NCBI RefSeq assembly: GCF_004010195.1
Contig: NC_057740.1
Coordinates: 10,341,709-10,402,293 of the forward strand
Reading direction: 5' to 3'
Length of the DNA: 60,585 nt
Source of the DNA: Chiloscyllium plagiosum
Taxonomy: Eukaryota
The translations under genes and the position numbers were made by a program. Positions 4,530-55,195 of this stretch are shown piece after piece. The notes under the pieces were generated by a model. The model saw only the letters and a list, made by a program, of their open reading frames with translations, had not been told where the DNA came from and ran no database searches. Numbering within the stretch: position 1 is the stretch's first letter; each line of letters begins with the position of its first letter.

Positions 4530-5255
4530 GTGAGTTCAAGTTAGTTTTTGTCATTAAAAAGTAACAAAAGCCCATTGTGTGGACTGATATTTCATATAAA
4601 AGTTATAGGTAGTTATTTATATGTGATATATCTGTGTAAATGCAGAAAAATCCACAGCAAATTTTAGTCCATGAATGGGAATGTTTCCATTAAAATAATG
4701 GGCAAAAGTGACATGAAATGAACTCTGTGTTATTTACCAGATGACCACTTTTGGTGTCTTGTTGTATTTTCCACCTCTACAGTCTATAGTAAGGGGCATA
4801 TTTTGAGGTAGATTTGGCTGCTACCAAATCTCCCTTTGTCTTGGGTATATCTAATGATTAGTGGTTGAGTTAAGTATCCGTAAAAAAAACTTCTGCGGTG
4901 ACAAGTGCATTTATAGCATAATAGTCAAATGCATGACTACGTGTAATCAGGAACAAATATTCACACTTCAGAAAGCTGGTAAAGAGACATTTGACCCTCC
5001 AAAAACTTTGTTTTCTAATAATGGGAACCTTTCAGAGTTAATTCTGCCTTTACATATTCAGAAAAAGCCATCACCAGGTGATCGACAGTTCAGTTCAATA
5101 GAAACTAAGCTCACTTAGAATAGGTAAAACAAGGAATATTGATTCATTAAGAGACGATCTTAATAGTGTGCATAGGAACATGATATTTTGAACTTGAATT
5201 GTTTCCCCACGTTATTCTTATTTTGCTTTCTGTAGCTTTTGTTCGATACGACACC

Positions 5256-5318
5256 ATGGAGCTTTCCAGCTTTTTGATGTTCATTTTGGTTGCTGCCTGC
5301 AGAACTTCAGCTAACCTG
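5256..5318 (+). CDS. Gene A signal-peptide exon (MELSSFLMFILVAACRTSANL)
   Basis: Acceptor tgtag at 5235, Kozak-like accATGg, hydrophobic core, phase-0 donor ctg|gtaaga. Confidence 0.8.
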
Positions 5319-8300
5319 GTAAGACATGAAGTCTCGAAAAGTTGGATGGAGGTTATACGTATTCAGGTTCCAGGTTCATCTTCAAACATAAGATGTGCAC
5401 AAACAAATTCCAGAAAAATCAGCAATTGGGAGATGAGTTTTTGTTTCAATCCTTATAAGCTGGAATGCACTTCCAGAAAAGATGGAAGCAGATTCTTTAG
5501 TGGTTAGTACTGGTGCTGTGAGGCACCTGTGAGGACTCAGGTTCAATTCCAGCCTCAGGTGATTGTGTAGAGTTTGCACTTTCTCTTCGTGTCTGCATGG
5601 GTTTCCTCAGGTGTTCTGGCTTCCTCCCGTAGTCCAAAGATATGTAGGTTTGGTGCATTGGCCATGCTAAATTGCCCATAGCGTCCTGGGATGTGCAGGC
5701 GAGGTGGATTAGACATGGGAAATGCAAGGTTATAGGCAGGGTGGGTAGGTCTGGGTGGGATGTTCTTCAGAGGGTCATTGTGGTCTTCTACCACACTGTA
5801 GGGTATCAATGATTCTAGGCGAAAGTGAGGACTGCACATGCTGGAAATCAGAGTCAAGATTAGAGTGGTGCTGGAAAAGCACAGCAGGCTAGTCAGCAAC
5901 TGAGGAGCAGGAAAATCGACATTTCGGGCAATTGTTTTGCCTAAAACATCGATTTTCCTGCTCCTCGGATGCTGCCTGACCTGCTGTGCTTTTCCAGCAC
6001 CACTCTATCTATGATTCTATGATACTTTTCAAACTGGAATTGGAAATAGGAACAGTTGGAAAGTGATGGGGATTAATTAAATAATCCTTTCAGAGGCTGT
6101 TGAAGGAATAAAAGGGCCTGCATCAAGACTGTCAATTTTTAATGTTCAATAATTAGGGTTTCAACACCATTTCAAAACCATCTTTCCAATTTTAAGGGAA
6201 ATGTGGATCTAAGCCAGTTAACTTTCATCATAGACAGAGTTTATTAATTAATCAAGTCACCCTTTTATGTTCACTCAATCAATTATTTAATCAGTGTTCC
6301 CTAATTACCTGCTTAACTACATGTTTATTGACAAAAAGGTCCAATGATCTTCTTCCCATTGCTGAAAATGAGCAATTTTACTGCAAATTTACACTTTATA
6401 AGCAATCTCTTTTAATAAATGAATGAATAGATGGTAAACAAATTACTGATTACTATCCAACATAAAGCAGGAACGTATACATTTAAACTGGTCTTTGATC
6501 AATCTACACAAGTGGTGAATGAGACAATTGTAAGTGGCTGGTTCTCTGTTTTAATGGAAAGGAATTCTAGATCAGTTGGCCAATCATTCTGTAACAATTG
6601 CAATATTCACAGTCATTAATTTATCAAAGGACATTAATTGTCCGCTCAACTGGTTTAATGTGAGAAAAGGACTTCCATGAGCTTTAGTAGGATTGATTTT
6701 GGTTCTTTGAACAGAATTGTTTCCTGATATTTTGTGGTATTTTCCACCTCTACCAGTCTGAGTAAGGGGTATGTTTTGAGGTAGTTCACTGCTGCTAACT
6801 CTCCTTTGTCTTTGCTTTGTCTGGGACCTATCTAGTGATTAGTGGTTGAATTAAGTATCTACAGAAAAGGAACTGTTCTGAGATAACAAGAAATTACTTT
6901 AATTGTGAATCACTTTTCCCTCAGGTATTCCAGGAAACCAACCAATTAATGAGAGAGAAAGTGGGAGACAAAATGTCAAAACTGGCAGATCTCAGTTTAG
7001 AGGAATTGAGTTCTCTTCCAGAGCAGAAGGATTGGCGTGATGATAATTATGTTACAGCCGTGAAGGACCAGGTACCCATTAATTTTCATCATGTCATTTG
7101 TAACCTCACTATACAAACAACCTGTTCAATGACTTTAAATCCTACTAACTGACATGAAATAAAGCAGAATCAGTCTGTTTCACTGGTGGTACCATCCAGT
7201 TGGATGTGATTTTCATTGCTGAGAAGAAATGCAAATGTTAGCATTTTCTTTCTCTCTCCAGGAAATGCTGCCAGTCTCACAGCAGCCTCCAAAATTTTGT
7301 GTCAGTGAAACAATATGTGAAACCTTATTGTTGCCCTTTCAAATTTATTTCTTTGATGGATGTTAGGGCCAAATTGGGAGTTGGTTTAACTCACTTGGCT
7401 CAACAGTTGGTTTGCAAAGCAGTGTAATAACGACAGTTGTGGGCTCAATTCCCAGCAAAGGCTGAGGTTATCATGAAAGACTCTCCTTCTCAATCATGCC
7501 CCTTGCCTGAGGCATGGTGGCCCTCAGGCTAAATCTCCACCAATCATGTTTCTCTAATGAGAGAGCAGCCCCATTACCGAGTCAGACTATGGCAGCTTGA
7601 GGGTCAAATTTGAACCTATGATTTTCTGAAGTGTGTCCTAACACTGGCCGAGAACCTGACTGATTTTTCTCCCTTCCATTATGTCCTATTAATGTGCTGA
7701 TTAGCTCTGTACAGCCAAATCATACGAGAAGCTCTTAAACTGTATGGTCAAATGTTTTGTGTCAGCAGTGTATTTGCTACTCAGCCATTGAAAGCAGAGT
7801 ATTACATAAACATCACAGGCATGTCTTTTGGTGTCTCGCAATAATTCAGTTGCAGAATGAATTGTCCACACTTTGCAATCTTTGGCAACTTCTCCCTGTT
7901 CCACGACCTCTTTTGCCAACAAGGAAAGTAATTCCCAGTATTACAGGAAATCGACCACATCCCACGATCAATGCCATCCTGACATAATTGCCATTTCTTC
8001 CTCACCAGTGAGTAAAAATTGCAGAATACTCAACATCGCCAGGGCTGCACCATCACTAATATGACACCAACAGGTCAAGTAAATCCACAAAACTTACAGA
8101 GGGAATGAAGGAATGAATTTGTCCTTGATAGCATCATTGTCGTATAATTATGTTAATAGTCATAAAATTATGTGATGGGAGAATTTTTACAGCAAATAAG
8201 TATTACAATGAAAAAAATGTTCATATTACATTTGAGACTTCTAATCAAGATATACAGGCAGAAAGAGTAGCTCTGAAGTAAGCAATTTGAGAAACAGACT

Positions 8301-11300
8301 ATACAGAATTGCTTTTTAACATTCAGATATTTAAATAATGACATCCACAAGTAGATAATCCACATTTCATATTCTCATGCTATTAGTTTTCATTGGAAGT
8401 GATGAATGATCAAGAGAAAGAGTTTTGTTATATTCATATCTGTTTTGTGATCAGGGCCAGTGTGCATCGTGCTGGGCCTTTTCTGCAGCTGCAACGATGG
8501 AAGGACAACTGTCCAATACAACCAACGACCTCCTCTCACTCAGTGAGCAAAACCTTGTGGATTGTGCAAAAAGCTATCAGAATCAAGGATGCAATGCTGG
8601 ATGGGTGCATCGTGCTTTGGAGTACATTCGTGACAATGGAATTGAAACTCGTGGAACATACCCCTACGTAGCAAAGGTACATTTGTTGCTTTACTATTCT
8701 CATTTTCACACAGTGATTCTCTATGTTCAGTTCAGCAACAGTTTGAAGTTTAACTTTCATTTTACACTTACAGGAAGTGACCACATCTTTATGCACAGCA
8801 CATGTTTTACATTCTAACTTGCATCAGTGCAGTGAATTTCCTATTATGCTTCCTCAAAACATCCTATCTTGAGTTAGAACTGTAATCTGTTCTATTAATA
8901 ATTATTGATTGTTGCTAGATCTTTACATTCTTTCCCTTGGAATTTAGTGAAAGGAAGGGTGGGATTGGGTTTGGGGTTGGAATTAAGGGTGAGAATGGAC
9001 TAGGTTTCATCAGTTACAAGAATCCCAATGGACATCAACCCAGAAACACACATTGAAGTTGTCTTGAGTGGAGTCTCTTTCATATATAGGAGAATGCTAC
9101 CACAAAGACAATGGACCAACTGGACAAGTCTCACCGTTCAGCTGGCCTTTCTTCCCAATGCAGAAGCGTTGACCCTGACTCCTATTGTACTCTTTGATAT
9201 TGGACAGCATCAACAATCAAACTTGACACAGTGTATGTCAGAGTGCAGAAGGGACTGCTTCCAAATTGTAGGGAGTCTATGATTCTATGATGATTGTTCC
9301 CCCTGCTTACAGGATGTAGTGAGATCAAGGTGGAGGATGATTGTTGAGACCAATAGTAGTGTTTCCTCAGCTACCCCTACTGAGACCAGCTAATTTCAGA
9401 AACAGTCAGGAACAATACTTGGGCCTTCTTAGGCCACATGCCTCAGCCTCTAACTGAGAATTGGATTGTATTGAATCCTGAATTGGCTGACACAATCAAT
9501 TTTAGATTCTTAGAAGCTTGTAAAGAATTCAGTAACAGAATTCTGGAAATAATGATCTGACTTTTTGATTTGAAAAAATGATATTTTTCTCTTCCAATTT
9601 CAGAAGCAAGCTTGCACATTTGATTCAGCAAATTCTGTTGGAACACTGTCCCGTTACGTTGATATTAAGAATCTGGAAGAGACAGAAATAATGGAGATAG
9701 TGGCAAAACACGGACCAGTGGCTGTACATGTTTACATGAGTGATGCATTCTTGAATTATAAAGATGACAGTAAGCTAATTATCACTCACCCCTTTATTCT
9801 CTCTATTTCACATCCTATCATGCAATTTACTGTACTGTGCATCCATTTAACAAACTCCACTAAAACTACACAAATAATTTCACATAAATTGAGGCAAAAA
9901 GACAACTAAACCTTTTGTACATTACACTAAAACTTGTGAAGACATTGAGAAAATTCCCTCTACACTATCCCTTCTGACATATGCATGTATAATGTTTACC
10001 ACTAAAGGTTAGTTAGACTGAGTCCAGGCCTATTCTCTTCTACTCAGTGTTGTTACAACTCATAGATCACAATGCTCCAACATCACTGATTACTTGTTTC
10101 CCATTGTTATTTACATATACATATGTATCCATCCAGTCAAGTGGTGGCCCAATTATCCCTTAACTAACTTATAACCATCACATGTTACCGATTTCCATTT
10201 GGTCTCAGGCAATTGCCAGATCCTACTAAATGATAGTAAAATGGAAAAAAGATTTTGTTTTGTGGTTTTTAATGTAAAGTTAAATTTTAAAACTACAAGT
10301 AAATTGCTACATGACAACCTTTAAACTAAATGAATATACTATTTGAAAGGACTTCAGTGAAAGTCTACTTTGGTCAACACAATCACCCTTTTATATCTGA
10401 AATTTGACCTTGACATGATGTCTTCATATTGTGCTGTTTTATAGGCATTTTTGATGATACTAACTACAATGGTGAAATACCTAACCATGCTGTGACAATA
10501 GTGGGCTACGTGAATAAGGTTAATGAAAAATATTGGATCATTAAAAACAGGTAAGTGGTATGGATTGTGGAATAGGAGTTGAAATAGGTGGAGAATCCTT
10601 GAGATTTTAAGTGTTGAAGGACACACAAGAATTTGGGTGTCTTTCCTTTTGAAGAAAGCTAACTTGGAATGGTACTTTTACTCGAAGGAACATTCCACAT
10701 GCTTCAAAGGATGGATGATAAGCTGTTAAAATATTAGATAGGCATAGAAAACAATTGAAGAATCTTAGAATCATAAAATTAATGAACCCCCACCTTGCAG
10801 GTAGAGGCTATCCGGCCAATCGAGTCTGCACAGACCCTCCAAAGAGTATCCTGTCCAGCCCCATACCATGGCCTCGTACCAATAATTGCACATTACCCAT
10901 GGTTAATTCACCAAGCCTGCACACCCGTGAACACTGTTAGCACGACCAATCCACCTAACCTGCATATCTTTGGACTGTGGGAGGAAACCGGAGCACCCGG
11001 AGGAAACCCACGCAGACATGTGGAGAATGTGCAAACTCCACACAGACAGTCACCAAAGGTTGGAATCAAACCCAGATCCCTGGCCCTGTGCGGCAGAAAG
11101 AAACAAATGTTCTGACTGAGAAGAGGAAAGTCAAATCACAATGTTAAAGGGGAGATGCTGAAAGTGGGGATCAGAAATTATAGCTGTCATAAATAGAAAG
11201 GAGATACTTAGAAGATACTAATAGACAGACAGTGTGATGAGGGATCCATAGTGGAGAGATGTGTACAGGTAGATCTGAATTTAAATTTGACCAACTTTAG

Positions 11301-11508
11301 AAAGTATAGGCATAAGTGTGATTAAAACAAAACTGTGCAGGAAGTTTTACCTTCTTTGCTTTGGTATGACAAACCTATTTTGCATTTTAACAAAAATTCT
11401 TTCATTATTAGTTTTGGAACCAGCTGGGGTCACAATGGCTACATGAAGATGATTATGTTCAAGAACATGTTAAGAGTAACCGACAGAGTCTTCTATCCAA
11501 TAATCTAA
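5256..11508 (+). CDS. Cathepsin L-like papain-family (C1A) cysteine protease, gene A (spliced)
   Basis: Exons 5256-5318, (6431-6514 tentative), 6925-7071, 8455-8676, 9604-9769, 10445-10550, 11412-11508. All introns are GT-AG and phase-compatible, with no stops. Motifs: LPEQKDWR, QGQCASCWAF (catalytic Cys), SEQNLVDC, NHAV (His), WIIKNS (Asn), FYPII*. 266 aa, or 294 aa with the tentative exon. Confidence 0.92.
5497..5817 (+). mobile_element. HE1-type tRNA-derived SINE
   Basis: tRNA-like head (agtggttagtact..ggttcaattcc), conserved body tccaaagatatgtaggt..ggccatgctaaattg, tail gattcta. Confidence 0.85.
5819..6008. mobile_element. Fold-back Penelope-related short element inserted in the SINE tail
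   Basis: Inverted arms of ~65 bp (tagagtggtgctggaaaagcacagcagg / cctgctgtgcttttccagcaccactcta); same sequence family as the Penelope terminus at 44920-45000. Confidence 0.7.
6431..6514 (+). CDS. Gene A tentative degenerate prodomain exon (MVNKLLITIQHKAGTYTFKLVFDQSTQV)
   Basis: ag|ATG with weak pyrimidine tract, GTG|gtgaat donor, phase 0/0; resembles the NxxxI..H..GxxxFxL..N.F.DL end of the cathepsin L I29 exon. Confidence 0.5.
6925..7071 (+). CDS. Gene A exon: pro-linker and mature N-terminus
   Basis: ttccctcag|GTA..CAG|gtaccc; VFQETNQLMREKVGDKMSKLADLSLEELSSLPEQKDWRDDNYVTAVKDQ. Confidence 0.9.
7380..7598 (+). mobile_element. tRNA-derived SINE, second family
   Basis: tRNA-like head and body ggccctcaggctaaatctccaccaatcatgtttctctaatgagagagcagc; reverse copy at ~26620-26810. 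Confidence 0.6.
8455..8676 (+). CDS. Gene A catalytic Cys exon
   Basis: 222 nt, GQCASCWAFS..SEQNLVDC..GCNAGW..YPYVAK, ag|..|gtacat. Confidence 0.95.
9604..9769 (+). CDS. Gene A exon (KQACTF..GPVAVHVY..NYKDD)
   Basis: ttccaatttcag| acceptor, |gtaagc donor, 166 nt ending in phase 1. Confidence 0.9.
10445..10550 (+). CDS. Gene A catalytic His/Asn exon
   Basis: IFDDTNYNGEIPNHAVTIVGYVNKVNEKYWIIKNS, 106 nt, ttatag|..|gtaagt. Confidence 0.93.
10768..11095 (-). mobile_element. HE1-type SINE
   Basis: Reverse complement of the HE1 body (gcaaactccacacagacagtcacc, ggaggaaaccggagcacccgg). Confidence 0.85.
11412..11508 (+). CDS. Gene A last coding exon
   Basis: (S)FGTSWGHNGYMKMIMFKNMLRVTDRVFYPII*, TAA at 11506-11508; same 97-nt length as the last exon of gene B. 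Confidence 0.9.
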
Positions 11509-11675
11509 CAATATGTGCCTCAAAAAGATACAGTCAACGTGTTGAGGAAGCAGCTTCTGGAAAAACTCTAAGATTTTACTGTTTTGAGGGTAGTGCTTTA
11601 AGGGGTTGTGGAATAAATCTTTTCTGTAGCTAAGTATGATTTCCTGGTGACTCTGTACCATTGAAGTTGAAAAAC

Positions 11676-17320: not shown

Positions 17321-17417
17321 TCAGATTATGGGATAAGAAGCACTATAGTTAATTCTACACATGTTCTTGCCTTTAATCATGCGCATGTATCCTTTCTCAC
17401 CCCAAGATGTTCCCCAG
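17321..17417 (-). CDS. Gene B last coding exon
   Basis: (S)WGTSWGEKGYMRMIKGKNMCRINYSASYPII*, acceptor ttccttttctag. Confidence 0.93.
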
Positions 17418-20400
17418 CTAGAAAAGGAAAAATATTTGTTAATATCCAAAACCCAATCTAATCATATCCAAAATTCAGACAGTGAGGATTTTTGTATGCT
17501 TGGTTCTGTAATATTTTTAATTTCTTCATTCGGATTGAATGCATTTTGGTTTTAATTTTAGTAGTGTTATCAGCAGGACATTAGGTTCATTTTAGAAAGA
17601 ATTTACTTCTGGAGATTTACAATTCCATCGAGACAAATTATTAGAATAATTGCAGCAAATGGGAGAGACAACATATAGAATCATTATGCATGGAAGCAGG
17701 TCATTCAGCCCATTGAGTTCACACTGACCCTCCAAAGAACATCCCACCTAGACCCAACCTTATTTCTATAACCCTGCATAGTCCATGGCCAACATAACTT
17801 GCACATCTTTAGACTGTGGGAGGAAACCAGAGTACCCAAAGGAAACCCACACAAATATAGAGAGAATGTGCTAACTCCACACAGGCCATCACCCAAGGCT
17901 GGAATTGAACCCAGGTCCTTGGTGCTAACCACTGAGCCACCATGCTGCCCCCTGAAAACTCATGAGATGGCCTCCAGTTCCAAGAGTAGCTTCCCTTCCA
18001 GATTGATTATTGAATGAAAAGTCTATCAGCTGCCATAGTGGCATTTGAGACCATTCCCCAAAACCATTAGCCCAGAGGCCTGGGTTATTAGTCTAGAAAG
18101 ATTCCCACTATGCCACCTTGTCCCTTGTATACTCTTACACAAAAGGTTAGTTTTGAGACAATGAGGAGTTATTACGTGCAGTGCATAGCAGTTTGTAACT
18201 ATCATGCAAGGATGAGTTTCAAAGTGTACAGCAGATGATCTGAAAAATAGATTTCTTTATTAATTCATTCACAGGATGTGGGTGTCAGTGACTAGGCCAG
18301 CATTTATTGCTAATTTCCCACTGTGCAGAAGACTGTTGAGAGTCAACCACACTGCTGTTCATCTGGATTCAGATGTAAGTCAATCCAGGCAAGAACTGCA
18401 GTTTCCTTCCTTAACATCAGGGATTACAATGGCATTTTCACCAAGCAATCAGTTTCTTGATCATCATTAGACTTTTAATTCCAGACTTTGTTGAATTCAA
18501 ATCCCAACATCTGCCACGGTGAAATTTAAACCTGGCTTCCTAGAATATTATCTGTGTCTCTGGATTAATAGTCTAGCAGTAACACTACTTGGCCATCATC
18601 TGCCTTTTGGATCCTGTGAAGTGGGATAGTATGTTCAGGCAAGGTGGAAACAATGATTGACAGCTGGGACAGAGCAGTTCTCCATAATCAGTGTAAGGGA
18701 AAGGATCAAAGATCAGCTTTGTCTCTAATCTTTAAATCAACTTAAGGTAGCCAGGGAAACAGAGGTTTCACTTACTACTCGGCAAAAATGAGATAGAGTG
18801 GTTGCAGCTGAAGGAATAAGCTTTTACAATTATTATACTCTCACAAACTATAAGTGCCAGGCAGTTGACTTGACTGCTATATAATCAAAGAGATTTAGCT
18901 ATCCCACATTTATCCATAAGGTGGCGACAGGAAGTAAATGAATCACTTTGAAAGAATTGTGTTGTATTCAATTACATCTTGATATAACGAGCTTCACTTA
19001 CATAATCGTAAATGCTTTAGGAGGTTCTGCTTATGTGTTCGCTTCTTAATGCTTCCTTTTTCCATTTGATAATTAAATAATGTCTGTGCCAGCATCAGTA
19101 TCAATACTTCATAGGGTAACAAAGATTTCCATCCTGCCTGCTTTTCTTAAATTCTTAATTTGTAGATATAGTTACCTGTTTTTAATGATCCAGTAGCTGC
19201 TTGAAGGTGCATCCACATATCCTATCAAGACCACGGCATGATCAACTCTCTTATTATTGCAGTCAGCATCATCAAAGATACCTGTAAAATGGAGGATAGC
19301 TGAAATAAACGCATAGACGCCAGTAATCTGTCACCAAGTCACCCTTTATTTACATGTGCACAGTACACTGGCTATAGCCAGCCAGTTTGGAGTCAGTCTC
19401 TTGAACTAAAGAGATCTGGTTATTTTTTTTTTCTTTTTTCTCCTTATCCCCACACTACCGCCTAACTGCGATAGTGCTTATAGGTTTTCCCAGCATCCAT
19501 GTTGTGTGAGAGTGAAGGTGTGAGACACAGTGAAAGACAACAGGTATACAAATCTTTATTCAATTTCCACTACCAGGAAGAAAGGAAACACCAGGGTGGT
19601 CAGTGACAAGCAGTGCCCTTCTCAGAGGGTATTGCTGCCGAATCAAACAGTGAAGGGGTTAAATCAAAGTAGAGTTGGAGAGGGAAATAAAGCACTCCAC
19701 TCCACTCCCTGCGGTGCTACCTCTCCCTGAGCAGCTCGAGGGTGTTGGTGAACACCGCATGCCCCTTCTCCAGAGACACTCAGGCTCGGACGTAGCCGGG
19801 GAAAAGGGGCAGGCAATCGGCCCTAACGACCCCCTCCACGGCCCGCTGCCTGGACCTATTTATGGCCAGGTTGGCCAGGCTCAGGAGCAGACCCACGAAG
19901 TGATTCCCCTGGTTTTTTGGTCAGCCAGGGCTTTCCTGATTGGAGGAGAAAGTGAGGGCTGCAGATGCTGGAGATCCGAGCTGAAAATGTGTCACTGGAA
20001 AAGCGCAGCAGGCCAGGCAGCATCCAAGGAACAGGAGAATCGACCGTTTCGGGCATTAGCCCTTCCTGAAGAAGGGCTTATGCCCGAAACGTTGATTCTC
20101 CTGTTCCTCTTTCCTGATTGGCCCAGGTTAACAATCCCAATCAATGACTTTTTATAGTCAACCGCCTGGTTCCAATCACTCCAGTAGCATTGTAAATGAA
20201 AACAATTTCGAACTATAGTTCTGCCTTCCTATTCTTGGATAATAACAAGCAAGCAAGGTTTGAAAGGCAGACCTACAAGATTTTGCATTCTCATAGCATC
20301 TTTCACCAAGCAACTTGTCCCAGAACCATTAAACAAAAAGCATTTGCAAAAGGTGACTAGACTGATCAAAAGAGAAAATTTGATTTTAAAAAAATTACTT

Positions 20401-23400
20401 CAAAAGACAGACGTATCAAAGTGAAAATATTCAAGAATTCAATTACAAGGTGTTGTGTCTGCAAATTGTGCATGAAGGTGATGTAATATCCAATTGTTCC
20501 CCATCTTGCACAGTGAGATTGAGAGATTAATTCTGAACCATGGTGAATTTTCTTTAATAAAGCAAACAGAAATTGCTGGAGAAACTCAGCAGGTCTCATA
20601 GCATCTTGGAGAAAGAAACAGAGTTAATGTTTCAGCTCTTCTTCAGATCTGAAGAAAGGTGACTGGGCTCGTAACATTGACTCTGCTTTCTCTCCAAAGA
20701 TGCTGCCAGACCTCCAGTAATTTCTGTTTTTGTTTCAGATTTACAGCATCAACAGTTCTTCATTCCACTTTAGAATTTTCTTTACCTGACTTGTAAAATC
20801 TCCAGGAATTAAGTGACGAATAAACAAGTACAGAAATTGGTCCAACACGTGCCACTAATGCAGCTAATCTTTTCTCATCAATATGCTTATACCTTTGGAA
20901 TCCTTTAATTGTGACGACGCTTTTAGCGCTACTGAAAGAGCACTGATCATTTCGCTGTAATTAAAATGAGAATCTGTTTAGCAACTTGGCAGACAAGAAT
21001 TGTCAATAAATGTCAACATCATATCACATACAAAATCCCACATATCTATGAGCTCCCAGCATCACTGTCCTCCAATACCTCTGAACACGTTCTCCATCAC
21101 TCAGTGCTGGTATGTCCCTGTGCCCTTTTCACCCAGCATGTACTGGCAGACTCATCTGGCCCAACCCCTCTACTTTCGCTTTCTAAATTTCTTTGCTTTG
21201 CTACATTCCTCCAACTTCAGAAACCACATTAAGACCCACCTTTCCATTAGCTCATTACATCCAAAATCACAAATCACATTCCAATTCAGACGTGACTCCA
21301 AACTGCTGAATTGTTTGAAATTTTTATTCATTGAACATCTCTGTGGTGCATGACAGAGAGCCACAGGCTAATCTCTGTTTCTTTATTTCTCTTTTCTCTT
21401 ATCCAGCAGTGGTCTCACAAATAACTGAGCGACTTTCCCACCACCAAAATCATCATGACTTTTATTTTTCACTGACAGGCTAATTTCTACTCTGCATTAA
21501 GTTAATTAGTCTCAGCTAGGATAGTATTTGAAAGTGCTGCAGATGCCCAGTAGAAATTTAGTCAATGCTTCCAACCCTGGTCATTATTGACAATCCCTAC
21601 TAGATGGTTTTCTATTGATATTGAATAAGGGAAGTATCAAGCTCAAATATAACACTGGCATTGAGGTCCCAATTAATTAACACTAAACATGATTGATGGA
21701 TGTCTTCAACGGGTTAGCATTTCCCAGTTGATGATTTACATATATTTGGTGGAAGGATCATTCAAATGTGATATAATTCAAAAATAGGGATAGACCAGCA
21801 GCATGGACAAGGAAAGATTTAGTCCAATGATACACTTGAATGAAGGACATTCTTTCTGCTAATAATCAAAATGACATTTGCTTGGCACTACGCATGAAAA
21901 TACTCAGATTCAGGTGACTTCTGTGTTTGCAAAGGTTCAATGAAATTGTTCCTTAAACCAGAATATCTTTCAGAACTCATAATTGACAGTCAAGTTATAT
22001 TGTATGAAATAGAGAGAATATCAGGCAGAAGATGTACCTTTGCTTGGTAGGGGTACGATTGATCAGATTCAATGCCGTATTTTTTAATGTATTTAAAGGC
22101 ACGATATGGTAAACCTCCATCGCACCCATAATTCTTAAATTCATCGGAACAGTCAATGATGTTTTGCGTGCTCAGATCCACATACTGTTTCTTTTGCTTG
22201 GCCAACTGACCTTCCACAGCTCCAACTGCAGCAAACGCATAACAGGACAAACATGAACCCTGCAGACAGAGCAGATAAATCGCCAAATGTGAAAAACACT
22301 TACAGATGTTTATTCATGATCCTCTTCACTTTGATTGAAAGAGAATCCAAATAGTTAACCAGACCTTTGCCTTGACTGTAATTGCCAACAGATGTGAACA
22401 GGCCTGGAATGTATTCATGCAAAATATTCAGTTCGAGATCAACCACTGCCACAACCTTACCCCTTCCACTTTTGGATGCCTAAATGGCACAGCATCATAT
22501 TTCAGTCCCTCACAATGTCATTTCAAGATGGCAGCATAGCTTAAGAATCAAAAACTTGATGAATTAGAGTATGCAGTGAGAAAGAGGAAGGGGGATAATC
22601 ATGAGCAGCTGGTGAGAATTGGCAGTAAAACATACACAACCTCAGGATTTGTTAATAGTGGAGTAGGGTCTATGAGCAGGCAAGTTTTACTGAACGTGTA
22701 CTGAACATAGACCTCTACTGGAGCACAATTTTGGGCACTACACTTTAGGAAGGGTGACACTGTTGCGTCATAGCACCAAGAACCTAGGCTCGATACCAAT
22801 CCTGGGTGACTGTATGGAGTTTGCTTGTTCTTCCTGTTCTGTGTGGGTTTCCACTGGGTGCTCTGGCTTCTTCCCACAGTCCAAAGATGTGCAAGTTTAT
22901 GTGGATTAGCCATGCTAAATTGGCCATAATGTCTGGGCGTGTGCAAAATAGGTGGATTAGCCATGGTAAGTGTGGGTATAGGGTTGGGGAGGATGTTCTT
23001 CGGCAGGTCAGTGCAGACTCAATGGGCTGAGTGGCCTGTATCTTCACTCAAGGGATTCTATGAATGCAAATATGTTGGAGGAAGTACAGAAGGAGTTTAC
23101 ATGAAATACGCCCACTGCCTTCTCTGCCCCCACTGACCCTCTCCTTGCAACCCAAGCTTCTAGCCCTTCTCCCTTGGTGCCCAGTCATTCCCTACCCAAG
23201 AAACCCTAGACTCAGCTTGTCCAGCAAAAAAATGCTCCTTGGTGGTCCTCCTTCCATTTCCAGCCCTATGCAATCTGATTGGCTGGCAGTTCTCAAGGAC
23301 AGGATTTCCTCTCAGTGGGGGCTGCCTCAATAAGCACATTGGTGCTGCAGGCCAGCATCGGAGTCATGGCATTGTTCCCATTTAGGGCCCTCTTGTAGCA

Positions 23401-26400
23401 CAGTAGTAATGTTCTTATCCTTGGATGTCCAGGTTCAAATCCCACCTGTTCCACAAGTGTGTAAGAGCAATTCTGAACAGATTGATTAGTAAAATTGTTA
23501 AATTTTTTTAAAAAAATTAAAAATAAAAGGATTCTTTCTTCTGATAGGTCCCTTCACCTCACTATAAGAATGTCCATAAAAGAACACCTTATCAATGGTA
23601 TTGAAGCAAGTGACTTCATGACTTTGTAAGCATTAGAAGTCTACTTGTAAGCTGGTTTTGTGCATTTTAATTTCCCCTCCGGACCCTGGGGCATATTTTT
23701 AAGGTGAGAGGAGAAAGATTTGAAAAAGATAGAGGGGCAATTTATTTTTACGCAGAGTGGTTCGTGTGTGTTACAACGTTTAAAAGACATTTAGAGAAGT
23801 ACAAGAATAGGAAATGTTTGGCGGGATATGGGCCAAACATGGGCAAGTGGGACTAGGTTAGTTTGGGATTATGGTCAGCATGGACTGGTTGGACTGAAGG
23901 GTCTTCTTCTGTGCTGTATGACTGTATGACGCTAATCTGCCAGGCACTCAAAGTGTTAGATCAGGACCCTGAATATATATATGTGCTTTTGTTAAAGATG
24001 AAAAATCGAACATGAAAATGAGTTTATCAGAAAGGAAATCTTTTTAAACAACCTGTCTGAACATGATGTGTCACATCTCCAAGACCATCCCTGACTTGAA
24101 TCCAAACCTTTTAGCCCTGAGGTAAGGACCCTGTCACTGCACCAACATGTTTCTGTGCATAACATTATTTTTAATCAACCTGTTCAGATATGTCATGCCA
24201 ATTCTGAAGTAGGTGAGATTTAAATGTGGACCTACTGGCCCTGAGGTGAGGCACTACCAGTGCACCGCAAGACTCTAAAGTTATTTGTAAACTACCTGTT
24301 TGGACATGTTGTAGCACATTTGCACGGCAGGTGAGACTTTAACCTGGACTTTCTAGGCTAGAATTACGGGCACTACCACTTTACTGCAAATCCCCTTTAG
24401 CATTTGTCTGTACGTCCATGTTGTCTGTCTGAATCGGACACATTATCCCCAATTGTTTGCTTCTGTTCTTAGTGCCTCCACCTACTGGCAGTTAAAAAAA
24501 CCACTAACTCTATAAGTTGTTCCTCCTGCTGCCTATTTAATACTGCTCTAACGTTTCTCAAACATAAGGTGGTTGAAAATTGTAAAAAATATTGAAGTAT
24601 GCAATGGTCATTCATGAGCATTCCTTAGAGTTAAAATATTAAAGAAGCATCATTCAACAAAATCAAAATCAAGCAACAACCTTCCTGCACAGAGTGAACA
24701 GACAGCATGAGAAGGTTATAGGTACCTGGTTCTTTACACCTCTAACATAACCCATTTGACGCCAGTCCACTTCTTTGGGCATACGCCTGACTTCCTCCAC
24801 TTCTTCCAGTTCTTCTAGTTCAATATCTGAGAATGCTTCATCTGTGTAATTTGCCATTTCATACATTGTTGCATCAGTATACAACTGTACAAACTCTGCT
24901 GGTGTCTGGAAGATAGAGTTGCATGATACCTCCAATGACACTATATCAGCAAACTATGCAAAGTCAAAATTGATTTGTTCACAAACAATTTCAATTCCAC
25001 GTGTCTCAATTATGTTTGCAATTTGCATCCAAGTTTGGCGATAATAGTGATAGAGCTCTCGAGCTCATCTTGTTACACAAAACGTGGAAGTCTTGGAGAG
25101 GGAGACAAGAGACATGAGCAGAAAGAAGCAAACTCCTGGTGTCTGTTGTAGATCAACAGGTCAGAGCAGGAGATTAAATCAAGAAACTTGAAGTCAAAGA
25201 AGCATATAGAGAAATGGGGATAATTGTCATGGATAATTTACTTCAATTTCTAGGAATAGATCAAGAATCTTTGCAAGTGCTTTCAGAATGAAACCATGTT
25301 TTGAGTAAACTGGAGAGGGTTCAGAAGAGACTTACCAGGCTGTTGCTGGGTATAGAAGGTTTGAATTATAAAAAAGGCTGGATAGGCTGGGACACTTTCA
25401 CTGGAGTACAGGAGGTTGAGAGGCGACCTTGTAGAAGTTCACAAAATAATGAGAGATATAGATAGAGTTAATGGCAGCAGTCTTTCCCCTAGAATGGGGC
25501 ATTTCAAGACTGAGGGCACATTTTTAAGTTGAGTGGAAAGAGATTTAATTGATATGAGAAGTAAATATGTTACACAGAGGGTGGTTTACATGTGGAATGA
25601 GCTTCCTGAGGAAGTGATGGATGTGGGTACAATTGCAACATTTAAAAGACATTTGGATGGATACATGAATAGGAAAGGTTTGGAGGGATATGAGCCAGGA
25701 GCAGGCGAGTGGAACTAGTTTAGTTTTGGGTTGTGTTCAGCATGGACTGGTTGGACCGAAGGGTCTGTTTCTGTGCTGTATGACTCTCTGACTCATTGAC
25801 AGTTAACTAACAAATTCCTATAATCAGAGGCACTGTTGTATTGGATCTTCAAACATAATGGAGGTCACAGTATAGGCAATCCTTCATTATGAAAGCATTT
25901 ATCTGAAAATGCACCAATACTAAAGAGACAAGTAATTGGGCTGTGAACAAAGTTTGTAACTTGACCATATTAAATGTAGCCAAATGTTATTTTTCTGGAA
26001 TTAGTGGGATTTTTTTAAACTCGAAAATAAACCAGTTGCTAGCTGAAACAAACTTAATACAACGCAGACACAATGGATGGATGTCACAAACATGTTAACC
26101 AAGAAACAGTTGGTGCAATTAGTCTACACAATGGTACTTGTTTGTCCAGGTTTAAATGACACTCTTTGCTATTGACCCAAGTTAACAGCACTTAAAAATA
26201 ACAACTGCTGTTCCATTGCATTATCGCACACACCCCATGAAAATGTTAACACCAATATAGTTACAACAAGTAAAACACATTTGCTGACCTAACAATGAAG
26301 GCAAGCCCAGAACTTTACATGTGAAATTGCCTTTGTAAGTCATGAACACAGGATGTGTGCTTGACACAATATTAAGATGTTGCAGTCTCAAGTGTCATTG

Positions 26401-29400
26401 TCCTGGGTGTGCATCTTGGACTATATATAATGGGAACAGAAGGAGCAACTTGTAAGAATAGCTGCAAGAGGAAGTAATCACCCAAACAAATGGAATAGAC
26501 TTCCTGGAGTGATTGACGGGGCAATATCTTTGAAACTACGAATGATTAATGGGACTAGCAACTCGAATTAATGGGAGCAACATGCAGATGCTTGAATGTA
26601 TGCGGTCATCCCCATAGATGCAGAGGACCATGGAGCTGCTCTCCCATTAGAGAGAGATTACTGGTGGTGAGGTTAACCTGAGGGTCACCCTGTCTCAAGC
26701 AAGGAGCGAAGTGAGGAAAGCAGGCCCTCAGTGGTCATTTTAGTCAGAATGGGAATTGAACCCACGTGATTGGCATCACTCTTCATCGCAAACCAGCCAG
26801 CCAAGCTAACAGACTTCCATGTAGGAGCAAATTACTGCAGATGCTGGAATCGGTACTGAAAACAACAAATGCTGGACATCACAGTAGGTCAGACAGCATC
26901 CATGGAGAGAGGGCAAGCTAATGTTTCAAGTCTAGATGACTCTTCATCTGAGCTTCACACAGACCTCCGTGTGTGTGTGTGTGTGTTGGGGTGGGGCGGT
27001 ACAAAAAGACTGCTAAAAGATTACTGAGTCGTCCTGAATTGTGAGCCTTGCCCTACAACAGCTGAAGAACGCTGTGGCAAAAGTGACTGTATTCTGGTAT
27101 AGTTTAAGATTATGCCTAGGACTGAAGGTCAACTGAATACAGTTGAAACACCTATCCTCAGACAGACGCATTGTGAGAAGTGGGATCAGGAAACTGAGCT
27201 GGACTGTAAGATTCAATGGAAGCAGAAAATGGTTCAAATAGCATGCACAGGGAAGACCAGTATCAAAAGCAAAACTGGATGAAAGACAGAGTCTAGGAAA
27301 TGTGGAGACTGGGGTAAAATGAGAATGGATATAAGATAACGATGTATATCAAGATCTAACAGTGATGTTAGCAGTCATGTGCAAGAGACTGTGAAGAAGG
27401 GATGGAATAGTCTGTGCTAATGTGAAATGTGCTTACAGAGAACAGTATTATCCACAATGGTGTCAATAAAACTTTGCAGAAACCTCAAATCAGACAACAG
27501 TCATTCATATGTAAGGGGAGACAGTTATAGGTTCCAAGCTACTAGAGGAGACAAGGTCAGCACTTAATACACAGAGCCACAAGACTCATGGAATCAAACC
27601 ATAGATCATGGGCAAAATATGAGCTGTTATTAAGGGCAATTAAGAATGAATGTCAAATGCTGGCCATGTTGGTGACTTCTACATCCCATGAAAGAAAAGT
27701 AAAGTTCTGCTGGACAACATGAGTCATAGTTAAAAACAAGATAATGGCAACAGGAAAACTGTTCAGAAGGGCTGAAATAGGAAATAGGAAATAGGATTTG
27801 GATAGCAGGAACTATTGCAAAAACAAATCCACTATTTGAAGCAGAAAGATGAGATAAGTAACATTAAAGCCACTGAAATGTATCATAAAAGTCTCATCAT
27901 GGCACAATTTCAAATGATCAAGGAGTGGAAAATATTACAAACTGTTTCTTTCTTGGTTTAAAAATAAAAGGAAGTATTTGATAAGGCAGTGATCAAAAAG
28001 CTGAAAGTGTTAATGGAATAGATGGGGTGCCTGATGGATGAATGCCAAGAACGAGCTCTTTTTTATTTAAATAAAGAAACGCAAGTGCTTCCTGGGGATC
28101 TTGAACATTGTTGGCAGAACATTTATTTTTCCAAAAAGCATATAGGGGCAACCCAAAAATTACAAGCCCGAGAATATAATATCTGTTTTAGATAAAGTAT
28201 TAAATGACATACTGACTGAGGAGATCATGAAAGAATTGTATCATAATGATGAAGGAGCTAGTGGACAATTCATGGCACAACATCCTTGATTATTAAAATT
28301 TGTGGAGATTTTAATGGAAGTGAATATATATTCAGTGAAAGTGAACTATTTTTGGTGCTTAGCAAGATTTTTGATAGCAGGCCACACAAAATAAAAATTA
28401 TAATACAAGACAAGCTACTGAGGTGAATTGGCAATTTGCTAAATTGAAAATCCATTGATTAAAAATGGAGATATGTTGAGATATACAATTCTGGGTGCAA
28501 TATTGCAGTAAGAGAAACAAGGCATTGAAAACTGCAGAAAGTGGAAGACAAACAATTCAGTACATTCAAATGTTAAAGCTCTCAGATCAAAGAACAAAGA
28601 AAATTACAGCACAGGAACAGGCCCTTCGGCCTTCCAAGCCTGCATCGATCCAGATCCTCCATCTAAACCTGTCGCCTAGTTTCCAAGGATCTATATCTGT
28701 CAGCTCCCTGCCCATTCATGTATCTGTCTAGAAACATCTTAAATGATGCTATAGTGCCCGCCTCTACCACCTCCATTGGCAATGTATTCCAGACATCCAC
28801 CACCCTCTGCATAAAAAACTTTCCACGCATACTCCCTTAAACTTTTACCTCTCATCTTGAACTCGTGATTTCCAGTAATTGAGTCCCCCACTCTGGGAAA
28901 AATCTTCTTGTCATCCACCTTGTCTATACCTCTCATGATTTTGTAGATGTCAAACAGGTCCCCTCTCAATTCCATCTCTCTAATGAAAATAATCCAAATC
29001 CACTCAACCTCTCTTTATAGCTAATGCCCTCCATATCAGGCAACATCCTGGTGAACCTCCTCAGCACCCTCTCCAAAGCATCCACATCCTTTTGGTAATG
29101 TGGTGGCAAGAACTGTATGCAGTATTCCAAATGTGGCCGAACCAAAGTATTATACAACTGTAACATGGCCTGCCAACTCTTGTACTCAATATCCCGTCTG
29201 ATGAAGAAAGCATGCCATATGCCTTCTTGACCACACTATTGACTGCCTTCAGGGTACAATGGACCTGAACACCCAGATCTCTCTGTCCATCAATTTTCCA
29301 CAGGGCTTTTCCATTCACCGTATAGTTCACTCTAGGATTGGATCTTCCAAAATGTATCACCTTACATTTGCCCATATTGAATTCCAGCTGCCATTTCTCT

Positions 29401-32400
29401 GCCCAACTCTCCTGTCTATCTATATTCTGCTGCATTCTCTGACAGCCCCCTTCACTATCTGCTACTCCACCAATCTTAGTATCCTCTGAAAACTTGCTAA
29501 TCAAACCACCTATGCCATCCTCCAGATCATTTACGTATATCACAAACAACAGTGATCCCAGCACTGATCTCCATTTTGAGAAACTCCTGTCTACAACAAC
29601 TGTCTGTCTCCTGCTGCCCAGCCAGTTCTCTATCTATCTAGCTAATACATTCTGGCCCCCAGTGTAGCAAAGAAGTGAGCAAGTTATGTGGAGGACAGAA
29701 GTATCATTGAGGATATTATTTAAAGATTTAAAATCCTAAAGAAAGATAAATTGAAACCAATCATACTTGAAATTGTCACAGATTTCGGAACCAAAAGACC
29801 TGGGCTTAAATAGGAAGTCAAAAACAGTTTAACTTATTTCACACAGAGGGGATTAATGTATGGTGTAGATTGCCCATTAAGTCAGTAGAGAAATGAATAC
29901 AGCAATTTGTAAAAGACAATTAGGTAGATGATTGAAAGGGTGGCTAATTGAGATATATTACATTTTCAAACTTGCCAAATAGTCTACAAAGCGTTTTCTG
30001 ATTCTTCCGTATTCCCATTTCCCTTCTCCAAAGTTTATTTTAGATTGAGATTGTGATTTTGATTTAGATTTACATTCGCATTTTATTATCACGTGCCCTC
30101 AAGCACAGCAGCACAGGAATACAGTGAAAAGTGTATAATGTCGCCAATCACAGCTACATCTTAGGTACAAAGGTACCAAGGTATAAAAAAAACTCAGGTA
30201 CAAAGTAGTAAGAGAAATGAGAGTTAAAAAGTTAAGCATTAGAGTCATAGAGGCCTACAGCACAGAGACAGGCCCTTTGGTCCAAACTGGTCCATGCCGA
30301 CCAAAATGTCCATCCACACTAACCCCATTTCCCTGCACTTGGCCATATCCTTCTAATCTTTTCCTATCCATGTATTTGTCCAAATGCCTTTTAAATGTCG
30401 TGAATGTACACACCTCAACCACTTTTGCTGCCGGCTCATTCCACATGCGTACCATCCTCTGTATAAAAAAGTTACCCCTCAGGTTCCCTTTTATTCTTTC
30501 CCTTTTAAATTTAAACTGATGCCCTCTTGTCCTCAATTCCTCAACCCTGAGAAAAAAACTGAGTGCATTCACCCTATCCATGCTTCTCATGATCTTATAC
30601 ACTTCTATAAGATTCACCCCTCAGTCTCCTACACTGTAAAGAAAAATGTCCTAGCTCTCCCTACAACCTAGACCCTTGAGTCCTGGCAACATCCTTGTAA
30701 AATTCTACTGCATTCTTTCCAGTTTAATAACATCCCTCCGATAGTGATCAAAACTGAGCACTCCAAGTGCAGCCTTACCAATATCCTGTACAACTACAAT
30801 ATAACTTCCCAACTTCTATACTCAATGCTCTGACTGATGAAGGCCAGTGTGCCAAAAACCTTCTTCCCTGCCCTGTCTCCCTGTGACTCTACTTTCAGAG
30901 AACCATGTACCTGAACTCCAAGGTACCTCTGTTCCACTACACTCCTTAAGGGCCTACCATACAACATGAAACTCCTATTTTGATTTGACTTTCCAAAATG
31001 CAAGACCTCACACTTATTTACATTAAACTCCAGTTGCAATTTCTCAGCTCACTTCCCCAGCTGATCAAGGTCCTGCTGCAATTTCTGACAACCTTCCCCA
31101 ATGTCCACGATACCGCCTATTTCAGTGTCATCTGCAAATGTACTAATAATGCCTTGTACGTTCTCATCCAAATCATTGATATCGATAACAAATGCAAATG
31201 GGCTCAGCACCGACCCCTGAGGTACACCACTAGTTACCAGCCTCCAGTCCATTTCTGACAACCTTCCCCACTGTCCACGATACCGCCTATTTCAGTGTCA
31301 TCTGCAAACGTGCTAATAATGCCTTGTACATTCTCATCCAAATCATTGATATCGATAACAAATGCAAATGGGCTCAGCACCGACCCCTGAGGTACACCAC
31401 TAGTTACCAGCCTCCAGTCCAAAAGCGTCCTTCCACTATTACCCTCTGCTTCCTACCATCAAGCCAATTGTGTATTCAATTTGCCAGCTCCCCCTGGATT
31501 CCATGCAATCTAACCTTCCACAGCAGCCTATCATGTGGAACCTTATCAAAGGCCTTACTGAAATCCATATAGACTACATCTACCACCCTGCCCTCATCAA
31601 CCTTCCTGGTCACTTCATCAAAGAACTCTAACAAATTTGTGAGGCATGATCTCCCATGCACAAACCCATGCTGACTACTCCTAGTCAAACCCTCCTAAAT
31701 GGATGTATTCCCTCAGAATCTTCTCAAGTAACCTACAAACCACAGATGTTAAGCTTACTGGTCTAGGGTTCCCAGGTTTTTCTTTGCAGCCTATCTTGTA
31801 TAAGGGCACAACACTCACTACCTTCACATTACTTCACAGAATAAGTAGAAAAAATTAAAAAAGGTAATAGTTAAGATTAAATTCCTTCTTAACATAAACT
31901 GGAAAAATAAAGGAACAAAATAATAGCTAACATTAAAGTCATTTTTAAATTTCAACTAGAAAATGAAGGAATTAGGTTAAAGTTCAATTTGGTTATGCAG
32001 GACATTGGTGAGGCCTCTTCTGGAATACTGCATTCATTTCTGGTCTTCCAGTTATAGGAGGATACTATTAAGCTGGAGAGGGTTCAGAAGAGATTTATCA
32101 GGATGTTGCCAGGTATGGAAGGTTTGAGTTATAAAGAAAGGTTGGATAGGCTGGGAATTTTTTCACTGGAGCATAGAAGATTCAGGGGAGTCCTAATACA
32201 AGTTTATAAAATCATGTGAGATATAGAAAGGGTTAATAATAGGTGTATTTTCCCTAGGATGGGTGATTTCAAGACAAGGGAGCACATTTTTAAGGTGAAA
32301 GGAGAGAGATTTTAGAAAACAAGAGGGGCAAAAGTTTTACACGGTGAATGATTTATATGTGGAATGAACTTCCTGAGGAAGTAGTGGATCTGGTTACAAT

Positions 32401-34542: not shown

Positions 34543-35355
34543 ACGTCACTGGGCTAGTGTCTTCAGTGAAAAGCTGTGGGCAATACAATGAGAAAGACAT
34601 GGAGACATAATGCAAGTCCACAATCCCACAGTCCTACCCTAATTATTAAGATGATCGGCACAAGTACAGGTTGAATGGATACCTCATCGTGTACATTTTC
34701 TAAAGTTAGAAGAGCTGAGAGCAGACTAACTACTGCATGCCTACAAAATAAAAATAACAGAGCAGAAGAAAGGTGTTTGATTTAGCTTTAAATAATTTCA
34801 ATTATAATCGTTAAAAGAAAATTTGCCAACTAGTCTTCATTCAGACGTAGAGGGGGGTTGGGGGGGCATTCCTGATAGTGTTCAATTCCTGCATTCCCAA
34901 CAATTTTAATTACCCTGGAAACACAGTTGGCAGACATTGTAAAGTTTCCTGGCTGGTGTGGAATCTGAAGGTAGACATGGGTGACACAGCCAGATTTGGC
35001 TTCTGCTTTGCCTCATTAATACACGTAATATACTGATCACAGGAATCTCTGATTCTCACTGAATGTATCCTGATAAGACACTCATTTTAAAAAATACTGT
35101 GACTTTCCTCTGTCTGCTCGGCATCTAGAAGTGTTAACCCATCTGAATTACATTAAGTTCCAATGTTTCAGAGTTTTCAATCTAATTTCTTTCCCTACGT
35201 GGAATGTAATTACAATAATGTTGTTCTGCCAAGACATTCTGCTGAACTCTCTTTGAAATGCTACACTATTAAATTACACAATAGTTGATTCAATTTATTA
35301 ATTACACATTAGCATCAGGCCATTTATTATACTAGAAGAAATATATTTTACCCAC

Positions 35356-53591: not shown

Positions 53592-55195
53592 GGCCCTTGA
53601 AGACAGAATCAGGGGAATATATTATGGGGAACAAAGAAATGGCAGAAGAATTGAATTGGTACTTCAGATCTGTGTTCACTGGGGAAGACACAAGCAATCT
53701 CCCAGAGGTAACAGTGGCTGAAGGACCTGAACTTAAGGGAATTTATATTTGTCAGGAATTGGTGTTGGAGAGACTGTTAGATCTGAAGGTTGATAAGTCC
53801 CCGGGGCCTGATGGGTCTACATCCCAGGGTACTGAAGGAGGTGGCGCGAGAAATCGTGGATGCATTGGTGATTATTTTCCAGAGTTCGATAGATCCAGGA
53901 TCAGTTCCTGCGGATTGGAGGGTGGCTAATGTTATACCACTTTTTAAGAAANNNNNNNNNNNNNNNNNNNNNNNNNNNNNNNNNNNNNNNNNNNNNNNNN
54001 NNNNNNNNNNNNNNNNNNNNNNNNNNNNNNNNNNNNNNNNNNNNNNNNNNNNNNNNNNNNNNNNNNNNNNNNNNNNNNNNNNNNNNNNNNNNNNNNNNNN
54101 NNNNNNNNNNNNNNNNNNNNNNNNNNNNNNNNNNNNNNNNNNNNNNNNNNNNNNNNNNNNNNNNNNNNNNNNNNNNNNNNNNNNNNNNNNNNNNNNNNNN
54201 NNNNNNNNNNNNNNNNNNNNNNNNNNNNNNNNNNNNNNNNNNNNNNNNNNNNNNNNNNNNNNNNNNNNNNNNNNNNNNNNNNNNNNNNNNNNNNNNNNNN
54301 NNNNNNNNNNNNNNNNNNNNNNNNNNNNNNNNNNNNNNNNNNNNNNNNNNNNNNNNNNNNNNNNNNNNNNNNNNNNNNNNNNNNNNNNNNNNNNNNNNNN
54401 NNNNNNNNNNNNNNNNNNNNNNNNNNNNNNNNNNNNNNNNNNNNNNNNNNNNNNNNNNNNNNNNNNNNNNNNNNNNNNNNNNNNNNNNNNNNNNNNNNNN
54501 NNNNNNNNNNNNNNNNNNNNNNNNNNNNNNNNNNNNNNNNNNNNNNNNNNNNNNNNNNNNNNNNNNNNNNNNNNNNNNNNNNNNNNNNNNNNNNNNNNNN
54601 NNNNNNNNNNNNNNNNNNNNNNNNNNNNNNNNNNNNNNNNNNNNNNNNNNNNNNNNNNNNNNNNNNNNNNNNNNNNNNNNNNNNNNNNNNNNNNNNNNNN
54701 NNNNNNNNNNNNNNNNNNNNNNNNNNNNNNNNNNNNNNNNNNNNNNNNNNNNNNNNNNNNNNNNNNNNNNNNNNNNNNNNNNNNNNNNNNNNNNNNNNNN
54801 NNNNNNNNNNNNNNNNNNNNNNNNNNNNNNNNNNNNNNNNNNNNGGATTGGACATTCTGGAGGCAGGAAACATGTTTCCGCTGATGGGTGAGTACCGAAC
54901 CTGAGGACACAGCTTAAAAATACGGGGTAGATCATTTAGGACAGAGATGAGGAGAAACTTGTTCACCCAGAGAGTGGTGGCTGTGTGGAATGCTCTGCCC
55001 CAGAGGGCAGTGGAGGCCCAGTCTCTGGATTCATTTAAGATAGAGTTGGATAGAGCTCTCAAGGATAGTGGAATCAAGGGTTATGGAGATAAGGCAGGAA
55101 CAAGATACTGATTAAGGATAATCAGCCATGATCATATTGAATGGTGGTGCAGGCTCGAAGGGCAGAATGGCCTACTCCTGCACCTATTGTCTATT
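53592..55195 (+). mobile_element. Relatively young CR1 LINE spanning the assembly gap
   Basis: MAEELNWYF..KSPGPDG..HPRVLKEVA..WRVANVIPLFKK before the gap; RT C-terminus and tail cctattgtctatt after it. Confidence 0.85.
53952..54844. other. Assembly gap (893 N)
   Basis: Run of n; ORFs crossing it are artefacts. Confidence 0.99.

Follow-up and report, generated by a model that had tools for sequence, protein, structure and literature searches.

A cathepsin-L-derived gene of sharks and skates whose predicted product has lost most of the I29 prodomain

Two convergent cathepsin-L-type genes, A and B, lie in the stretch of 60,585 nucleotides from Chiloscyllium plagiosum that we analysed as a whole (the window; Table 1). 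We found that the product of gene A, as spliced on paper, is a papain-fold protein that has Gln, Cys, His and Asn but no I29 domain, and that its orthologs from 10 other sharks and skates lack this domain as well, whereas the sister gene B keeps it. Since the absence is shared by these species, gene A represents an old and conserved lineage, not the broken gene of one species. In our reading, to which we give a probability of about 0.65, gene A is a conserved cathepsin-L-derived gene of sharks and skates that would encode a cysteine protease of the secretory pathway with a propeptide of about 32 residues, able to fold by itself and at most weakly self-inhibited, with its control probably left to expression, pH and free inhibitors.

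Table 1. Genes A and B and the relics in intron 1 of gene A, in window positions.
Feature	Position	Strand	Remark
Gene A	5256-11508	+	cathepsin-L-type; convergent with gene B
Gene A exon 1	5256-5318	+	21 aa: predicted signal peptide plus 2 residues
Putative relic of the first I29 helix, most likely intronised	5319-5351	+	in-frame VRHEVSKSWME; similarity seems to extend to about 5375 once the frame is shifted by 1 nt
Relic of the 3' half of the ERFNIN/GNFD exon	6431-6520	+	ends at 6514; former donor at 6515 (GTGAAT); acceptor at 6430 is weak
Gene A exon 3	6925-7071	+	residual 30-aa propeptide, after which the mature domain begins (DWR, oxyanion Gln)
Gene A exon 4	8455-8676	+	catalytic Cys (8470-8472) in CASCW
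Gene A exon 5	9604-9769	+	most of the remodelled prodomain-binding loop
Gene A exon 6	10445-10550	+	catalytic His (10486-10488) and Asn (10546-10548)
Gene A exon 7	11412-11508	+	to the stop codon; Phe replaces the usual Trp177
Gene B	17324-34527	-	sister paralog of gene A, convergent, full I29
Gene B exons (approximate)	34527-34405, 32974-32852, 24905-24726, 22259-22038, 20954-20784, 19279-19178, 17419-17324	-	

Joined in order, the six exons of gene A encode 266 aa; all introns are GT-AG, no internal stop occurs, and AATAAA is found 3' of the gene at 11612 and 11676. Exon 1 ends in CTG, followed by GTAAGA, an internal donor that most likely arose inside the former coding exon. With a frequency matrix, this donor scores 9.3 and is the best of 10 GT sites in 5300-5480, the others reaching 2.8 at most. 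Applying the -3/-1 rule by hand, we predicted signal cleavage near Ala19, which leaves about 32 residues before the mature domain. The original prediction had set the 21 aa of exon 1 against 46 aa in gene B. The first figure is right, but the second counts from an upstream Met, and the like-for-like length is 41 aa from the Met at 34527, which aligns with the ATG of gene A and with the ortholog starts. All 21 residues of exon 1 are identical in C. punctatum, and 18/21 in the models of Stegostoma and Rhincodon. The models of C. punctatum and Stegostoma join the same two exons, 1 and 3, as our skip model of gene A, which is identical to them at 215/267 and 210/266 positions, respectively. The junction of exon 1 with exon 3 is a prediction backed by ortholog models. 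Exon 4 is 100% identical to the public protein P0002 of C. plagiosum, a model that begins in the relic exon, using 6431-6529, and lacks the signal exon. Among the 40 genome matches listed for exon 4, the next-best is at most 57% identical, and thus no close prodomain-bearing copy of gene A was seen.

It had been remarked that gene A stays in frame despite the loss. The 266 codons are indeed open, but this is not notable: the exon that was lost has 123 nt and is of phase 0-0 in the paralogs, and its neighbours fit, exon 1 closing and exon 3 opening in phase 0, so that the frame was kept through the loss. This is expected from the exon phases and needs no special cause. An assembly gap or error hiding an exon was ruled out, since the sole N run in the window is 53952-54844 and none lies in gene A. 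A contig of DNA run X1, which is perhaps not independent of the assembly, matches 5284-5562 without any difference. One X1 contig (depth 5.3) carries a 1-base insertion at 9632 in exon 5, which is either an assembly error or a frameshift allele. Intron 1 contains high-copy repeats at 5540-6020, including an 82-nt inverted pair at 5850-6018, and two copies of a dispersed repeat family, at 4750-4890 and 6725-6870, flank exon 1 and the relic exon. We rejected this repeat of about 130 bp as a trace of a local duplication behind the exon loss, because the family is dispersed, with at least 40 matches on many contigs.

That gene A has lost most of I29 was borne out by every profile used. A genome-wide search with PF08246 matched the second exon of gene B (44 bits) and, among 41 scored candidates, nothing in gene A. 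With a profile built from 140 prodomains, six B proteins reached 75-89 bits, and every A protein or model stayed below 0 bits, including the model that takes in the relic exon. By direct Pfam scan, PF08246 was detected in 0/12 lineage-A sequences from 11 species and in 4/4 gene B proteins; the short-prodomain enzyme that had been proposed would thus be elasmobranch-wide, and its poor self-inhibition is plausible. The roughly 100-residue propeptide bearing ERFNIN/GNFD, the criterion of the L-like subfamily, was found in none of the models from the 11 species. The protease domain itself is recognised throughout by PF00112, with 223 bits for P0002 (cut-off 20.7) and 199-245 bits for all orthologs. 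Exon 3 opens with VFQETNQLM where gene B has TPAEFVQLY, which agrees with the described lack of the T..EF motif. No free I29 partner was found adjoining gene A.

Remnants of the prodomain are readable in intron 1. We built a matrix from 13 paralog exons (14 were extracted from 20 loci tried and one near-duplicate was dropped; gene B was included). When the last 45 nt and the donor were scored with this matrix at 121,070 positions of the two strands, 6431-6514 took rank 2, surpassed by the true exon of gene B alone, in line with the view that the ERFNIN/GNFD exon is at best a relic. The rank stays 2 for scoring lengths of 45 and 60 nt with or without the donor, and is 2-30 for longer ones. An nhmmer search placed the relic in register, at a non-significant E=10; no Pfam match was found in it, and no significant match was found for the 5' (ERFNIN) half of the lost exon. 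A second donor beside the relic, at 6530, is the one used by P0002.

The W..WK segment had been described as missing as well. It is missing from the spliced product, but it is still present in the DNA, in frame in the intron, where VRHEVSKSWME, following the exon 1 donor, aligns gap-free to IVDEQWETWKQ of gene B. With a matrix from 9-10 paralog first exons, this register ranks 7-74 of about 121,100 window positions and 2-4 within intron 1, a modest result taken alone, but the register had been fixed beforehand. At the same position, the Heptranchias ortholog has VRYE, reading ANPVRYEENFHE, and the Pristiophorus ortholog has TRQGDQETWQKTYGKGH, reading ADPTRQGDQETWQKTYGKGHSRM. As the helix can be aligned in the intron of gene A and is read in these two models, it was most likely intronised and not deleted, and the donor GTAAGA most likely represents the old Val-Arg codon pair.

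Using the Stegostoma protein as query, we found ten elasmobranch clusters on top, none with PF08246. From the members of these clusters, lineage A gained Amblyraja and another annotation of C. punctatum, and a search of 50% representatives returned no further close relative. All lineage-A orthologs are automated gene models. Those of 9 other species run from the signal exon to exon 3, skipping the ERFNIN exon; P0002 and the Heterodontus model, whose N-terminus is unrelated, begin differently and are uninformative on this junction. The part before the mature domain, signal peptide included, measures 123 residues in B; in lineage A it has 76 (Pristiophorus), 65 (Heptranchias), 56-57 (catsharks), 51 (Stegostoma, C. 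punctatum) or 33 (skates), the models of Pristiophorus and Heptranchias having longer first exons. The residual propeptide keeps a degenerate third helix ([IV][FI]Q[ED]..QL) in 8/10 lineage-A rows, and the conserved acidic D..LEEL segment, located in exon 3 of gene A, has a similar counterpart in the skates and in gene B.

In a midpoint-rooted tree of 38 rows, A (11 rows), B (7 rows) and A+B were each recovered at 100/99, and the branch to gene A of C. plagiosum was short (0.045). A tree of exon sequences (72 columns, 13/30 loci parsed) kept A together and did not recover A+B. The orthologs of A and B lie on contigs of equal length in five species, in keeping with linkage, and have consecutive gene numbers in C. 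punctatum. The pair should therefore predate the shark-skate split, roughly 300 million years ago. The sister relationship to gene B and the relics in the intron both point to descent of gene A from an ERFNIN-bearing gene. A 955-nt Logan contig encodes 177 contiguous residues of a skate ortholog across four exons, covering the C-terminal part only, which implies a spliced transcript.

We found no description of gene A in open-access papers; subscription journals lay outside the scope of this search. A divergent catshark 'ctsl2' is highly expressed in yolk-sac haematopoietic cells (excerpt of PMC8923501). An N-glycosylation sequon, NTT, is encoded in exon 4 of gene A at about 8505-8516 (mature position 40); it is present in 10/11 lineage-A models and absent there in B, and could carry a lysosomal targeting glycan.

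In the mature domain, Gln19, Cys25, His and Asn are invariant in 10/10 lineage-A rows. Both cysteines of the C-terminal disulfide are missing in 4/10 (the four carpet sharks) and both are kept in 6/10, which fits selection on a folded protein. A first structure model, from a 10-sequence alignment, had a pLDDT of 49 and was discarded. From an alignment of 150 rows, AlphaFold gave a pLDDT of 91 and a pTM of 0.88, with about 95 or more for the mature domain. Structure prediction, one of the checks proposed originally, thus yielded a confident papain fold for the mature domain; the leader was predicted with low confidence (pLDDT below 50 for residues 1-24 of the stretch that was folded), and on its binding the model is silent. 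The model has target-normalised TM scores of 0.93-0.95 to cathepsins S and L and a Foldseek E of 7e-30 to cathepsin S. Whether searched by structure with Foldseek or by sequence, the matches are cathepsins S, L, V and K. We regard the gene A product as having, in this model, the C1A papain fold.

The surface on which a prodomain docks has changed. We located the docking loop by motif, with numbering that we take to be that of cathepsin L. This loop and a nearby Trp are altered in lineage A only and are canonical in lineage B. The linker of the loop has 4 residues in 9/11 A proteins, compared with 3 in 6/6 B and in 95/95 outgroup proteins parsed (of 135), and its terminal Gly is kept in 5/11 A compared with 6/6 B and 94/95 outgroup proteins. 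The third-position Phe of F.FY occurs in 0/11 A, compared with 6/6 B and 60/107 parsed outgroup proteins. Trp177, present in 135/135 outgroup proteins, is kept in 4/11 A and is Phe in 7/11. Hence the L-like combination of the canonical prodomain-binding loop (F.FY..G[IV]Y) and Trp177 is not found in lineage A. An apparent loss of Phe143/Tyr146 in the deep alignment was a register artefact, as F..[YF] is kept. In L-like zymogens, the propeptide clamps on the propeptide-binding loop and then crosses the active site (excerpt of PMC7720491), and Trp177 belongs to the S1' floor (excerpt of PMC9712828). Gly23 is replaced by Ala in 10/10 lineage-A rows and Gly65 by Ala in 4/10; the changes Trp177 to Phe and Gly23 to Ala could lower activity.

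These observations bear on whether gene A relies on a prodomain in trans, as had also been suggested. It has been reported that falcipain-2 can be helped to fold in trans (excerpt of PMC3317066) and that propeptides are able to inhibit non-cognate cathepsins (excerpt of PMC7720491), and the linkage of A and B as sister genes in five species would fit such a partnership. However, the linkage is accounted for by local duplication, and the linker, terminal Gly, third-position Phe and Trp177 are changed in A only, whereas continued docking should preserve this surface. We therefore consider it unlikely that the product needs an I29 prodomain from gene B, or from another cathepsin, to fold or to stay inactive. 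It also seems improbable that real transcripts encode a longer, partly functional propeptide by taking in the relic exon, which starts at 6431, or by extending exon 1. Including 6431-6514 or 6431-6529 preserves the frame (294 or 299 aa), P0002 uses the latter, and longer first exons exist in the Pristiophorus and Heptranchias models. Against this, the relic acceptor at 6430 is poor (45% pyrimidine, compared with 60-85% in four used acceptors, scored at or up to 2 nt from the site), the relic exon is in no ortholog model, and the gene A model that includes it still has no I29 signal. Differences between the relic and gene B at codon positions 1/2/3 are 11/9/6, without the third-position excess of the intact exon 4 (32/19/39), a comparison of small numbers that weighs little.

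The same replacements at Trp177, Gly23 and Gly65 would suit a folded and conserved protein with little or no protease activity, serving as a binding protein or an inhibitor decoy, and the loss of a safety domain may be easier to tolerate in a weak enzyme. Such a role appears very improbable to us, as the catalytic Cys, His and Asn and the oxyanion Gln are invariant in 10/10 rows and the four orthologs that have kept Trp177 lack I29 too. That gene A is silent or dying in C. plagiosum is, in our judgement, highly unlikely. RNA runs X5, X6 and X7 gave reads over 4800-10900 on intronic repeats only and on no gene A exon, but this is not a valid test, given that the reads covered about 2% of one poly(A) single-cell run and about 6% of another and that the last exon and the 3' UTR lay outside the interval. 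P0002 lacks the signal exon, and the insertion in one X1 contig would shift the frame. On the other hand, each of the six exons has an open frame, the introns are GT-AG, AATAAA signals are present, the branch to C. plagiosum is short, and lineage A is intact in 10 other species.

For the preferred reading, a conserved protease with a short propeptide, we propose the following history. A duplication before the shark-skate split would have given rise to genes A and B. Gene A may then have stopped using the phase 0-0 ERFNIN/GNFD exon, and later a donor inside exon 1 (Val-Arg codons GTA AGA) would have cut off the W..WK helix, which had been left without a partner. The mature-domain surface that held the prodomain might then have drifted in lineage A. 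The acidic D..LEEL segment next to the mature N-terminus may act as a short folding aid like the N-terminal extension of falcipain-2, in which a segment of 12-15 residues, not the prodomain, can drive papain-family folding (excerpt of PMC3317066); for gene A we infer this role by analogy. Falcipains keep the inhibitory ERFNIN/GNFD prodomain, whereas gene A does not. A leader without a globular anchor would bind weakly, and control would lie in the site of expression, in pH and in free inhibitors, not in a zymogen clamp. More tentatively, the product may be an elasmobranch protease of the L lineage essentially without a zymogen stage, which would fold with a leader of 14-32 residues and be active on leaving the ER. 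The orthologs from sawshark, sevengill, catsharks, carpet sharks and skates might then stand for successive degrees of prodomain loss, the parts of the exons that were discarded being readable in the intron.

Human procathepsins L, K, S and V, the cathepsins that are also the best PDB matches of gene A, have in common with it the papain fold, the catalytic residues, the exon layout and the signal peptide. They differ in the propeptide, which has about 100 residues in L-like zymogens and about 32 in gene A (about 14 in the skate models), where ERFNIN, GNFD and PF08246 are lacking and the docking loop is remodelled. By every testable feature, gene A would be a C1A protease, L-like by descent, that lacks the propeptide defining this subfamily. 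A short propeptide is also known from cathepsin X, where it has 38 residues. Cathepsin X/Z is likewise a papain-family protease of vertebrates whose propeptide is very short and has no ERFNIN motif, and this propeptide is latched by a disulfide to the active-site Cys (excerpt of PMC4842899). In lineage A, no row has a Cys in the interval from the predicted signal peptide to the mature domain, which, together with the L-like descent, argues for an origin independent of cathepsin X. CTLA-2, crammer and salarin are free I29 proteins, illustrating that the I29 domain and the catalytic domain need not be encoded together; these proteins consist of the inhibitor half only, and gene A is the reverse case.

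The I29 prodomain is regarded as essential for the folding, trafficking and inhibition of L-like cathepsins (excerpts of PMC7720491 and PMC9712828), and gene A is likely a natural test of its dispensability. A lineage without I29 since before the shark-skate split, next to a sister that keeps it, offers a ready-made pair for testing what changes in the mature domain allow it to do without the chaperone and by what means a protease that lacks the clamp is held in check. Gene A also appears to be a clean example of in-frame domain loss via exon decay and intronisation.

Gene B has peculiarities of its own, which are conserved from carpet sharks through skates. Its active-site motif is CLSCY, with Gly23 changed to Leu and Trp26 to Tyr in all B rows, and its third exon encodes 60 very acidic aa, the mature domain being basic (pI about 8.7-9.5). 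On the minus strand at 35200-35249, about 700 nt upstream of its first coding exon, the DNA weakly resembles the 5' half of the ERFNIN exon (nhmmer E=0.011), either by chance or as another relic. Elsewhere in the genome, a cathepsin-L-like paralog (L071/L072, G000:C31:5936800-5956670) has matches to exons 3 and 4, but about 16 kb of DNA upstream of exon 3 contained no I29 exon. This paralog may be another copy that lacks the prodomain, a mere fragment, or a gene whose intron is longer. Another copy, L073, on an unplaced contig (G000:C101200:37740-47000), is interrupted by an in-frame stop behind the DWR motif, shows no I29 exon over the stretch examined, and is likely a pseudogene. Large cathepsin-L-like clusters lie at 4.6-6.2 Mb of G000:C31, with at least 9 exon-4 matches besides A and B, and at 43-49 Mb of G000:C8, with at least 5, and many more matches are found on unplaced contigs.
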